Source: Escherichia coli (GTDB taxonomy: Bacteria; Pseudomonadota; Gammaproteobacteria; Enterobacterales; Enterobacteriaceae). Taken from it: a DNA stretch of 64,000 nucleotides. The translations under genes were made by a program, and so were the position numbers. Positions 60,604 through 62,858 of this stretch are shown here, piece by piece (the stretch's first letter is position 1; each line of letters starts with the position of its first letter). The notes below the pieces were generated by a model. The model worked only from the letters and a program-made list of their open reading frames with translations, searched no databases and was not told where the DNA came from. The DNA lies in the NCBI RefSeq assembly GCF_965641715.1, contig NZ_OZ282454.1; one strand, 5' to 3'.

Positions 60604-61167
60604 TCAGGCACGCAAACGAATAATCATCGTCGGAACACGGGTATAAGCAAACGTCCCGCGCGGCAGCTCCTCGCGGATGTCAGAAAACGGTAACAGCTTC
60701 TCCTGCTGGCGTGGCCCGTTCAGACAGACGGCGACCAGCACGCCACCCGGACGCAACAGGGAAAAGGCCCGCAGGATATGCCGGATATCCTGCCCGTGAC
60801 TGAACGGCGGATTCATGATAATCCGGCTGTAATACTGCGCTGGCTGCCAGTCCATGAAGTCATCACACTGCACCCTGACACCGTTAAAATTTTCCCGCAG
60901 ATACCGGACCAGCCCGCTGTTAATCTCCACCGCATCACACATGGCCCCCGGCGCGATATCCCGAATCGCCCGCAGTATGGCTCCGGTGCCGGCAGAGGGC
61001 TCCAGAATGTGATCATGGTTGCTGATCTCCGCCAGCGTCACCAAGCGATCACAGACCGGGGCAGGTGTCACAAAGAGCTGAGATTCAGCCCGGATTTCAG
61101 CAACCGGTGCAGCGTTATCCAGCCCTGCGCGCATCAGCCTGATACGTTCTTTTAACTGACTGTGCAT
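60604..61167 (-). CDS. Orphan N6-adenine DNA methyltransferase
   Basis: SAM-binding EPSAGTGAI and catalytic NPPF motifs; no adjacent restriction gene. Confidence 0.8.
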   Translation of the reverse strand: MHSQLKERIRLMRAGLDNAAPVAEIRAESQLFVTPAPVCDRLVTLAEISNHDHILEPSAGTGAILRAIRDIAPGAMCDAVEINSGLVRYLRENFNGVRVQCDDFMDWQPAQYYSRIIMNPPFSHGQDIRHILRAFSLLRPGGVLVAVCLNGPRQQEKLLPFSDIREELPRGTFAYTRVPTMIIRLRA

Positions 61168-61214
61168 GTCATTATCTCCGTTATCCCCCGGGGATTTTCC
61201 CCGGGGGATAAGTC

Positions 61215-62576
61215 TTATTTCTGCGGGATTTCCGTGATTTTCATGTCGGTGATATACACATTCACCAGACGGAAATTGTTGTCCATTGTGCGGCGGTAAC
61301 GATATGCTCCGTGCTCTTCTGTCTCTGCCACACTGCGCACGGCCTTACAGTCCCGGGGCAGGGCGGCCCACTCTGCCTTTGTCATTTCCCGGAAGCCTTC
61401 CCCCGGATAGTTGACTACAGGCGGACGCTTCGCGGCCTGTCTGGCGACAACGGCCTCTTCTGCCGATGGCGCTTTGTAGTCCGTGATGCGATCAGGCGTC
61501 ACTTTCATCGTGCCACTGTACCCGAGGAAACTGTAATTCGGCGTTGTGACTGAACTCACCGCCCCGTTGCTTTTGTTCACGCGGATGATGGTCAGCCACT
61601 CGCCCCGGCTGCAAACCTGCCCGCCCGGCTCAAAATCTTGTGTCCGGGTAACCACGCCGCCGCTTTCGTCCAGCATGGCACGCTCATAGATCAAGCGGTT
61701 CTGATAGTGGTTAACCCAGCGTTGCTGACGCTGAATCTGCCGTTCATGGCAGCGGATCGCAATTTCGCGGGCCTGCTCCGTGGTGATAATGTCATCATCC
61801 AGGGCCGACCATAACGATCGACTCCCTTCATACTGGCTTTTTTCTGCCGGGCGCGGATACCTGTCCAGCGGGAAACAGGCACTGATTCGGTCATAACTGC
61901 TGATAAGTTTTGCCATATTCAGATCCAGCGATTCAGCCCGCCACATCGTCAGATATTTCTGCGACTGTGCGATGGTCTTTTCAGCCTTGCGCAAATCAGC
62001 CTCGATTTTTTTGATACGACGCCAGCGAACGTCCGGACGTTCTTTATACTTCGCGAGAAGCAGTGCCGACCGCGCCCGCGCCTCCCAGTATTCCGCACGT
62101 TCAAAGAGCATCACGGCACGTTTCATACCATTTTCAATACGCTGCGCATCACGACGGGCGCGGCGTTCGCTGTGATGTCCCACAAGGATCGGCTGACCGG
62201 GCGGGATCATCGCGGCCAGTCTTTCCACTTCATCAAGTGCCTGTGCGGATTCACTGGCCCGCTTTCCGCTGTATCCGGTAAACCGCTCCGCCCGTGCTTC
62301 CTGACGTTCAGCGAGCGTACTGTCTTCATCCTCAATCTCTCCGGCAAGTGAGAGGAGCACGTCTTCCCGGCCCGGTGTCCAGGCAGGAGCCACAAACAGC
62401 GCCTGTTTGGGTGCCCAGCGGAAACCGGCATCATGGACTTTTTTATACGTCTCCGGGTCAAGACGTGACGCGGCATACAGGCGCAGTTTGTTGTCATCCG
62501 GTGAGTAGGTCGCGCGGTACATCTGCACAGGGCTGGCGGCTTCCGGGGCGGTCATGGTGATTGCTGCTAATGTCAT
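61215..62576 (-). CDS. Conserved leading-region protein of unknown function (DUF3560-like, from memory)
   Basis: 453-aa ORF co-transcribed with the methyltransferase gene. Confidence 0.5.
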   Translation of the reverse strand: MTLAAITMTAPEAASPVQMYRATYSPDDNKLRLYAASRLDPETYKKVHDAGFRWAPKQALFVAPAWTPGREDVLLSLAGEIEDEDSTLAERQEARAERFTGYSGKRASESAQALDEVERLAAMIPPGQPILVGHHSERRARRDAQRIENGMKRAVMLFERAEYWEARARSALLLAKYKERPDVRWRRIKKIEADLRKAEKTIAQSQKYLTMWRAESLDLNMAKLISSYDRISACFPLDRYPRPAEKSQYEGSRSLWSALDDDIITTEQAREIAIRCHERQIQRQQRWVNHYQNRLIYERAMLDESGGVVTRTQDFEPGGQVCSRGEWLTIIRVNKSNGAVSSVTTPNYSFLGYSGTMKVTPDRITDYKAPSAEEAVVARQAAKRPPVVNYPGEGFREMTKAEWAALPRDCKAVRSVAETEEHGAYRYRRTMDNNFRLVNVYITDMKITEIPQK

Positions 62577-62627
62577 AAAATGTTCTCCTTCCGTCTGTTG
62601 CCGCCCCTCGCGGGGCGGCTCACCTCA

Positions 62628-62858
62628 TCAGTTAAAAGCGCGTTTCAGTTCGAGTGTGCGGAGCACCTGCCCGAAAGCCGTGTTTTTCATGGCGGGGATG
62701 TGTACACCACGCCCCCGGTGAAAACTCCGGGCTATGTGTCGCCCGAAGGCTTTCAGCACGGGGGCAATTTCCGGCGCGGGGATGTCTTCGCGTCTGAAAC
62801 GGGGATGACGGCGGGGCTTTACAGCCGCTGCGGAAGGTGAAACAATACTTAAAGTCAT
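62628..62858 (-). CDS. Hypothetical small basic protein
   Basis: 76-aa ORF, first gene downstream of repeat copy C. Confidence 0.35.
   Translation of the reverse strand: MTLSIVSPSAAAVKPRRHPRFRREDIPAPEIAPVLKAFGRHIARSFHRGRGVHIPAMKNTAFGQVLRTLELKRAFN

Follow-up and report, generated by a model that had tools for sequence, protein, structure and literature searches.

What might a methyltransferase gene without a restriction partner, accompanied by two further genes, be doing in the leading region of a plasmid? The question is raised by three genes, ydaB, ydbA and ydcA, at positions 60604-62858 of a 64,000-nucleotide (nt) stretch of Escherichia coli DNA (assembly GCF_965641715.1, contig NZ_OZ282454.1). 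This stretch is here called the window and all coordinates refer to it. The genes lie beside one of three related repeats, which we name copies A (~54416-54750), B (59785-60450) and C (~63085-63540). A sequence-only reading of the window had described an orphan adenine methyltransferase with two uncharacterised partners and had proposed that it protects incoming DNA. Our results suggest a different relationship between these proteins, which is new here: judged by homology, YdbA and YdcA are the separated halves of one protein that forms a single polypeptide of 650-700 amino acids (aa) in most distant relatives.

Split and fused forms of a DUF3560-methyltransferase

The list of open reading frames (ORFs) reproduced the coordinates of the three genes exactly and placed all of them on the - strand. 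The first gene, ydaB (62628-62858), encodes a 76-aa protein named YdaB in UniRef, and its computed isoelectric point (pI) of 12 agrees with the earlier description of a small basic protein. It is followed by ydbA (61215-62576), whose 453-aa product belongs to DUF3560 and is the counterpart of the N-terminal module of fused DUF3560-methyltransferase proteins, and by ydcA (60604-61167), which encodes a predicted TaqI/HsdM-like N6-adenine-type methyltransferase of 187 aa without a target-recognition domain. The genes are separated by 51 nt (ydaB-ydbA) and 47 nt (ydbA-ydcA), and a Shine-Dalgarno sequence precedes each of them. All three are genuine genes, as the DUF3560 match of YdbA, the M.TaqI match of YdcA and the codon-position pattern of ydaB (all described below) indicate.

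We searched 1.84 billion cluster representatives with YdbA and obtained 3854 relatives. Diverged relatives (42-55% identity) were mostly 630-700 aa long, with YdbA aligning to their first ~440 residues. The C-termini of three fused relatives were 37-40% identical to YdcA (E 6e-25 to 3e-38) and the fusion junction in these three proteins coincided exactly with the separation of the IncF genes. The remote-homology search on the 453-aa protein therefore yielded both the Pfam family DUF3560 and fused relatives whose C-terminal domain is ~40% identical to the 187-aa enzyme. As a homologue of the N-terminal ~440 residues of such fusions, the protein is no mere accessory, and the earlier picture of two uncharacterised partners has to be revised on this point.

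The two modules were found together across a broad range of sequences. Both were present in 99 of the 147 cluster representatives, and a fused protein used as query spanned both IncF genes in all of the best 5000 PLSDB records. At least 543 loci of IMG/VR encode a relative; among the best 80, the two modules formed one ORF in 74 and adjacent ORFs in 3, and the methyltransferase was missing from the remaining 3 (one of which is cut by a contig end). The methyltransferase gene was likewise adjacent in the independent split loci L026 and L092. Such split versions, with this gene immediately downstream, occur in a viral contig and in a contig from a metagenome, where a Lar protein for restriction alleviation is encoded as well. 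The surroundings of fused genes included a betaproteobacterial MOBF plasmid, where the gene lies among ssb, DUF932, a cytosine methyltransferase gene, kleA and radC, and a phage contig, where it lies near a DNA polymerase gene. Because distant relatives, widespread in phages and conjugative elements, encode both modules as a single fused protein, YdbA and YdcA together make up, on this comparative evidence, one functional unit that invaders employ, with a pairing that is not absolute.

This argument was built on natural fusions of 40-55% identity. Two singleton "fusions" of 582 aa (P0006 and P0007, 96-97% identity) were dropped as fusion evidence, as they are probably frameshift or assembly artefacts. 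We also observed that protein clustering at 90% identity files YdcA under a cluster represented by the 453-aa DUF3560 protein. Rare read-through or frameshift fusions such as P0006 and P0007 probably caused this misfiling, which could mislead cluster-based counts.

The methyltransferase YdcA and its DUF3560 partner

The label of adenine methyltransferase, which motifs and homology suggest for YdcA, had been derived from the NPPF motif, and we located this motif (motif IV) at residues 119-122 of the 187-aa protein (60802-60813 in the window). Two further motifs precede it, TP at residues 34-35 and EPSAGTG (motif I) at 56-62. The best solved relative by sequence search was the catalytic domain of M.TaqI (E 1.2e-6), with an alignment spanning TP, motif I and NPPF: EPSAGTG and NPPF align with LEPACAHG and NPPY of M.TaqI, motif I is N-terminal to motif IV, and at the TP motif (motif X) FVTPAPVCDRLV of YdcA aligns with ETPPEVVDFMV. 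Across 80 diverse sequences, G513, G515, N572, P573 and P574 were invariant and T487 and P488 nearly so. The QLF-TP segment ahead of motif I appears to be of the G-Q-F-F-T-P type of HsdM/TaqI enzymes, unlike the GQNFL of KsgA/Erm. Pfam gave only weak generic matches (MTS at the top with 1.4e-6, RrnaAD with 2.7e-5) and no match to the beta-class family PF01555, the motif being NPPF and motif I coming first. Stronger matches were obtained with type II methyltransferase models of PADLOC (down to 1e-11; mad2 1.9e-20) and with the methyltransferase domains of giant phage proteins in PHROGs (E 6e-34 to 1e-29). Iyer et al. described the giant-phage clade as DarB-type, TaqI/EcoKI-like enzymes with an N-terminal helix that the TP motif caps and with NPP(Y/F) (PMC5512222). 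By its motifs and their order, YdcA is a TaqI/HsdM-like (gamma-class) enzyme and belongs to a different class from M.EcoGIX.

The structural model of YdcA consists of a seven-strand Rossmann core and nothing beyond it. The chain ends 65 residues after NPPF and the residues of M.TaqI past ~190 have no counterpart, so that YdcA appears to have no target-recognition domain.

The same searches bear on the possibility that YdcA methylates RNA (an rRNA or tRNA adenine, as Erm and KsgA do) or protein, and thereby reprograms the new host. Erm and KsgA were indeed its best NCBIfam matches (E 3e-9 and 1.7e-6), the top Pfam match MTS is a small domain common to rRNA and protein methyltransferases, and in the PDB profile search the rRNA dimethylase Dim1 was the best match at 8.7e-9, level with M.TaqI at 1.8e-8. 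Because these two rank level, the scores do not settle whether the substrate is a DNA or an rRNA adenine, a point that counts against our interpretation. However, the NCBIfam scores fall far under the family cut-offs (36.6 bits against 212 for Erm, 27.5 bits against 171 for KsgA), whereas DNA methyltransferase models and phage polyvalent methyltransferase domains score much more strongly. The C-terminal RNA-binding domain of Erm/KsgA is absent from YdcA, which aligns to M.TaqI through the TP motif (as defined in PMC5512222). We consider an RNA or protein substrate very unlikely; the TP motif, the missing RNA-binding domain and the matches to phage DNA methyltransferases favour DNA. The cut-offs and the absent domain also ruled out an Erm-like resistance methylase.

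YdbA matched Pfam DUF3560 (PF12083) with an E-value of 2.5e-36, residues 89-206 covering positions 3-121 of the 124 in the model. An AlphaFold2 model based on 85 sequences was confident (predicted local distance difference test, pLDDT, 93.5; predicted template modelling score, pTM, 0.82) and comprised a small alpha/beta domain (20-83), very long helices packed into a bundle (88-212 and 266-304) and, at the C-terminus, a region rich in beta structure (320-442). The invariant residues are mainly arginines and aromatics on the helices, together with the loop GQPILVGHHSE, and the DUF3560 segment has a pI of 10.3. The model had no solved structural relative beyond generic helical bundles; a structure search of AFDB50 returned family members only (from Proteobacteria, Acidobacteria and Planctomycetes), and sequence and profile searches of PDB, NCBIfam and PADLOC gave no match outside the methyltransferase half. 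From this composition, and from its association with an enzyme that lacks a recognition domain, we infer that YdbA binds nucleic acid or positions the enzyme.

The main rival to a single functional unit is that DUF3560 has its own activity, for instance as a hydrolase or as a binder acting through the GQPILVGHHSE loop. Two independent weapons would then be joined only by co-delivery, as in polyvalent proteins. The segment G127-E137 hardly varies and falls in a loop modelled with lower confidence, a frequent property of active-site or ligand loops, and one relative also contains the polyvalent-protein domain LPD29. Names such as "hydrolase" circulate for the DUF3560 family in UniProt; we know of no evidence supporting them, and no hydrolase family matched DUF3560 in NCBIfam, Pfam, PDB or structure searches. 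Two observations fit an independent DUF3560 and count against a single unit: DUF3560 genes without an adjacent methyltransferase occur at L094, L078 and L086, and a model of concatenated YdbA and YdcA, aligned to the natural fusions, reached a pLDDT of 90 and a pTM of only 0.65 with a low-confidence linker, so that no firm interface is predicted. Nevertheless, the pairing is consistent in the cluster representatives, the viral loci and the plasmid records counted above, the methyltransferase gene remains immediately adjacent in split loci, and the methyltransferase has no DNA-recognition domain of its own. An independent activity of DUF3560 therefore seems unlikely to us.

Repeats, strand orientation and an antisense RNA

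The position of the operon suggests when it might be expressed. Direct-repeat families bore out the earlier observation that repeat copy C (~63085-63540, + strand) lies directly upstream of the operon; it ends 230 nt upstream of ydaB. Copy C is a Frpo/ssi-type element with a long imperfect hairpin on the transferred strand, a presumed single-strand promoter for - strand transcription into the operon. Copy B (59785-60450, + strand) is upstream of ssb and bounds the oriT-proximal side of the module, which places the module between direct repeats B and C. The + strand of both copies folds far more stably than shuffled sequence (z = -12.35 for copy C and z = -14.27 for copy B). Over ~450 nt, copy C is 88% identical to Frpo2 and 77% identical to Frpo1 of the F plasmid. 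A comparison of six copies from three plasmids indicated that 99 predicted pairs persist in the long hairpin and that 13 of these show compensatory changes. Promoter activity has been shown for the Frpo copies of F (PMC9849209), and start sites have been mapped for the homologous ssi elements of pESBL (PMC12672017). Given its position, its fold, its homology to Frpo and the compensatory pairs, copy C is very probably the promoter of the operon on entering DNA.

The orientation of the genes is consistent with such a promoter. The neighbouring genes are all on the - strand, ydcA has the same orientation as ssb and psiB, and oriT and traM lie at lower coordinates. The transferred strand is therefore the + strand of the window, which is the template for these genes. 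Transcription from single-stranded DNA needs the transferred strand as template (PMC9849209), and this arrangement is found here.

Transcription of ydaB-ydbA-ydcA as one unit is plausible. In a scan of 59700-63800, neither intergenic gap contained a - strand terminator, and the three - strand terminator-like matches all fell either inside the coding sequence of ydbA or beyond the operon. The consensus scan of the same region gave no - strand sigma-70-like promoter anywhere. The gene order is retained in IncFII(K) plasmids. Each gap contains a hairpin without a U-tract on the - strand. The hairpin of the ydaB-ydbA gap (62600-62619) is GC-paired, GCCGCCCC-GCGA-GGGGCGGC, and is identical in a diverged Klebsiella plasmid whose flanking genes are only ~75-80% identical. 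The GC-rich hairpin of the ydbA-ydcA gap is at 61181-61211; the Klebsiella copy differs in sequence at this position, yet it also holds inverted-repeat arms. Both hairpins may stabilise the RNA, mark sites of its processing or act as structures in single-stranded DNA. No paralogues of YdaB, YdbA or YdcA were found elsewhere in the window.

A second regulatory element was identified at the head of the operon. The cis-antisense RNA AS-pc01 (Rfam RF02875; 62853-62950, + strand) overlaps the ribosome-binding site and start codon of ydaB. The covariance model matched over its full length (positions 1-99 of 99) with 107.1 bits, above the family's gathering score (79). In AS-pc01, the loop of the first hairpin complements the Shine-Dalgarno sequence of ydaB, and a terminator hairpin lies at 62927-62947 on the + strand, where the scan placed a terminator-like site. 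A sigma-70-like promoter, TTTACA-17-AACAAT with a TG, matches the consensus at 62818-62846 (+ strand) within the ydaB coding sequence; as it lies 7 nt ahead of the Rfam match, it may start AS-pc01. The template of this RNA is the - strand, which is absent from the entering DNA, and AS-pc01 would therefore be made only after duplex formation.

YdaB itself is conserved at 74-96% identity and confined to IncF-like plasmids of Enterobacterales; no homologue was detected beside distant fused genes. Compared with the diverged Klebsiella copy, ydaB differs at 11, 11 and 31 first, second and third codon positions, a third-position bias that indicates purifying selection on the protein. YdaB is hydrophilic and without a membrane helix. 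It gave a weak and partial match to HU-CCDC81 (E 5.4e-4, 38 of 89 model positions), shared at 1e-3 or better by 20 of 29 homologues, and its profile search of the PDB found no HU protein. The largest family enriched in leading regions (family 1, 4739 members, uncharacterised) has the UniProt names YdaB, YdfB and YgdA (PMC11541004, supplementary file 3); this family could correspond to the 76-aa YdaB or to ORFs called inside the repeats.

The layout of ydaB and AS-pc01 raises the alternative that the pair is a stabiliser resembling a type I toxin-antitoxin system, separate from the methyltransferase and guarding the segment between copies B and C against deletion. A cis-antisense RNA that exposes an anti-Shine-Dalgarno sequence in a loop over the ribosome-binding site of a small gene is the arrangement of hok/sok, recombinogenic repeats flank the module, and F shows the deleted state. 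Moreover, Couturier et al. proposed such a role for flm between Frpo1 and Frpo2 (PMC9849209). Yet the hydrophilic YdaB, with a pI of 12, has no membrane helix and shows the weak HU-like signal instead, no toxin family matched it in NCBIfam, PADLOC or PHROGs, and the order ydaB-ydbA-ydcA is fixed, with 51 nt between the first two genes. We regard a stabiliser as exceedingly unlikely.

The deleted state itself is instructive. F and pESBL lack ydaB-ydbA-ydcA and present a 63-aa gene directly followed by ssb (L002, F 9600-10700; L091, pESBL 8262-9222). The single Frpo2 of F is nearer to copy C distally and nearer to copy B proximally. This mosaic resembles a recombinant of C and B, the product expected of a deletion of the module through exchange between the two direct repeats. 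With the module missing from both plasmids, live-cell and RNA-seq studies of early expression never covered the operon.

Further features were noted at the repeats. A 75-aa ORF is intact directly after the Frpo element in Klebsiella IncFII(K) plasmids; in the window ~124 nt including its start are deleted, and alignment with L007, one of these plasmids, together with the ORF list identified its remnant at 62951-63091 on the - strand. Copy A, the third related copy in the window, keeps the distal core (54380-54800) but is missing ~295 nt, the part that builds the long hairpin of F Frpo1 and of copies B and C. Because this stretch is missing, the promoter upstream of a ygeA-like gene (54070-54366) may be defective in this plasmid. 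Short ORFs within the Frpo repeats (59773-59979, - strand, 68 aa; 63078-63218, - strand, 46 aa) carry the public label "single-stranded DNA-binding protein"; as they overlap hairpin DNA, they are probably annotation artefacts. Finally, a hok-family toxin ORF (55017-55178, - strand) adjoins an Rfam sok antisense RNA (55176-55346, - strand, 98 bits), and this pair has copies A and B on either side, an arrangement that matches the position of flm in F.

The module is common among plasmids. Over 2.8 kb, the region shows 100% identity to pRHB38-C15_2, an IncFIA/FIB plasmid of E. coli. More than 4000 PLSDB plasmids from Escherichia, Klebsiella, Salmonella and Shigella match it at 90% identity or more, and the majority of these are conjugative; the module is carried by at least 5000 PLSDB plasmids. 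The gene order of the annotated record (traM, oriT, hok, psiA, psiB, a ParB-like gene, DUF905, ssb, methyltransferase, DUF3560, hypothetical gene, DUF1380, antirestriction genes) is that of a classical IncF leading region, in line with the location assumed by the sequence-only reading. The enzyme also held up as an orphan: no restriction endonuclease was annotated in the 26.8 kb surrounding the match in CP057088.1, an identical plasmid (12 kb of flank on each side), and no HsdS-like gene was present nearby in the annotated plasmid neighbourhood. Leading regions are enriched in orphan methyltransferases, and the same survey lists DUF3560 as an enriched uncharacterised family (1913 members, with "methyltransferase domain protein" as structural match) and YdcA-like proteins as a small family only (PMC11541004). 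A methylome study of E. coli ST131 reported a single methyltransferase gene on pEC958, an M.EcoGIX homologue.

A proposed role on entry and its relation to known systems

These results led us to propose a mechanism towards which we lean with modest confidence: the split DUF3560-methyltransferase would methylate adenines with relaxed specificity during entry, its expression being started by a single-strand promoter and ended by duplex formation together with an antisense RNA. The hairpin on the incoming single strand would recruit the host RNA polymerase, and the operon would be transcribed before the complementary strand exists. The small basic protein YdaB would be made alongside the two-piece methyltransferase, briefly, on arrival in the new cell. 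YdbA, whose helical bundle is rich in arginines and aromatics and is accompanied by small beta-barrel domains, would hold the DNA or position the enzyme, and YdcA would methylate adenines on the entering strand or the nascent duplex with relaxed sequence specificity. The hemimethylated sites so produced could evade restriction. Conversion to duplex would remove the hairpin promoter, and AS-pc01 would then block residual translation, which makes a two-step shut-off.

The idea that such an enzyme protects incoming DNA matches the literature in general terms (PMC7736820, PMC11541004), as the earlier reading had supposed, but the enzyme class differs from the one with demonstrated protection. In the case of pESBL, protection comes from M.EcoGIX, which methylates the single strand during entry (PMC7736820). 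The neighbours of relatives include the anti-defence genes ssb, radC and kleA as well as Lar restriction alleviation. Besides the unpaired DUF3560 genes, the uncertain interface and the level ranking of Dim1 described above, several points weigh against the proposed role. Methylation, DNA binding or an anti-restriction phenotype is known for no family member, and the literature searched contained no paper on DUF3560 function. F and pESBL, both without the module, conjugate well, and the module is therefore dispensable in permissive matings. Many relatives are found in double-stranded DNA (dsDNA) phages, so that action on single strands is no family-wide requirement. Finally, inspection by eye, which was ambiguous, did not locate -35 and -10 hexamers within the copy C hairpin.

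Alternatively, methylation could mark the entering strand for the plasmid itself, in the timing of complementary-strand synthesis, strand discrimination or early-gene regulation, rather than act against restriction. The action of M.EcoGIX is linked to the mode of replication (PMC7736820), Frpo transcripts can serve as primers for the complementary strand (bioRxiv 10.64898/2026.01.09.698686), plasmid methyltransferases may have regulatory roles (PMC11602122), and the dispensability of the module in F and pESBL would fit such a mark. However, this fused protein is frequently encoded by dsDNA phages, beside replication genes and anti-restriction genes such as Lar, where a mark specific to conjugation would make no sense, and the leading-region neighbours of the operon are anti-restriction genes. 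We judge a strand mark to be decidedly improbable.

Methylation on entry also allows a broader interpretation, which we put forward only tentatively. DUF3560 might be an unrecognised DNA-handling module that stands in for the target-recognition domain and makes a bare TaqI-like catalytic core into a "coating" methyltransferase, promiscuous in sequence and possibly directed to single strands. The two together would then define a new and very widespread anti-restriction family of invaders (phages, integrative elements and thousands of resistance plasmids), unstudied because F and pESBL lost the module by recombination between promoter repeats.

The module is widespread and clinically relevant. 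It occurs in at least 5000 sequenced plasmids of IncF type from E. coli, Klebsiella, Salmonella and Shigella, the main carriers of clinical resistance genes, and it is absent from both plasmids (F and pESBL) that defined early gene expression after transfer. If the entry-phase, relaxed-specificity methyltransferase is real, it would help explain why restriction barriers against these plasmids are weak and would provide a second, mechanistically different example beside M.EcoGIX. Viewing DUF3560 and the methyltransferase as one functional unit suggests a likely role for a large family of unknown function enriched in leading regions (PMC11541004) and makes it a simple testable hypothesis. The presence of the same protein in many phages suggests a reach beyond conjugation.

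Among known systems, the single-strand-specific orphan methyltransferases M.EcoGIX/M.BceJIII of plasmids (PMC7736820) are a close parallel: an orphan enzyme of N6-methyladenine type in the leading region, with the transferred strand as template, a single-strand promoter hairpin ahead of it and early protection from restriction as the expected role. In contrast, M.EcoGIX is a single beta-class protein (PF01555, DPPY), whereas YdcA is TaqI/HsdM-like by sequence, has motif I before NPPF and no recognition domain, and is paired with DUF3560. The upstream hairpins also differ, being of class 3 for M.EcoGIX (PMC12672017) and of class 1 (Frpo/ssi) upstream of the ydaB operon. F carries an M.EcoGIX-type gene, annotated "DNA methylase", further from oriT.

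The DarB-type domains (PMC5512222) share with YdcA the TaqI/EcoKI-like clade and the TP and NPP(Y/F) motifs and, as proposed for the module, are used by invaders early after entry as an enzyme joined to a DNA-handling module. They differ in having LPD36 N-terminal and an SNF2 helicase C-terminal to the methyltransferase domain and in virion packaging, whereas YdbA and YdcA have none of these and are encoded by separate genes with DUF3560 as partner; domain searches found neither LPD36 nor SNF2 helicase domains in YdbA, YdcA or the fused relatives. M.TaqI (PDB 2ibs, 1aqj) is the best solved DNA methyltransferase relative of YdcA over motifs X (TP), I and IV. Unlike YdcA, which stops right after the Rossmann core, it continues into a C-terminal domain of ~180 aa for DNA recognition, its target being TCGA.

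The regulatory elements have equally clear counterparts. Copy C is homologous to Frpo1/Frpo2 of F and to ssi1-3 of IncI1 (class 1; PMC9849209, PMC12672017), with the same long hairpin on the transferred strand and the same orientation to downstream genes, but its predicted promoter activity would serve a different operon, absent from F and pESBL. Likewise, AS-pc01 resembles the antisense RNA of hok/sok as a short structured RNA with its own terminator over the translation start of a small ORF. Its target, however, is no membrane toxin but a hydrophilic basic protein at the head of a three-gene operon.

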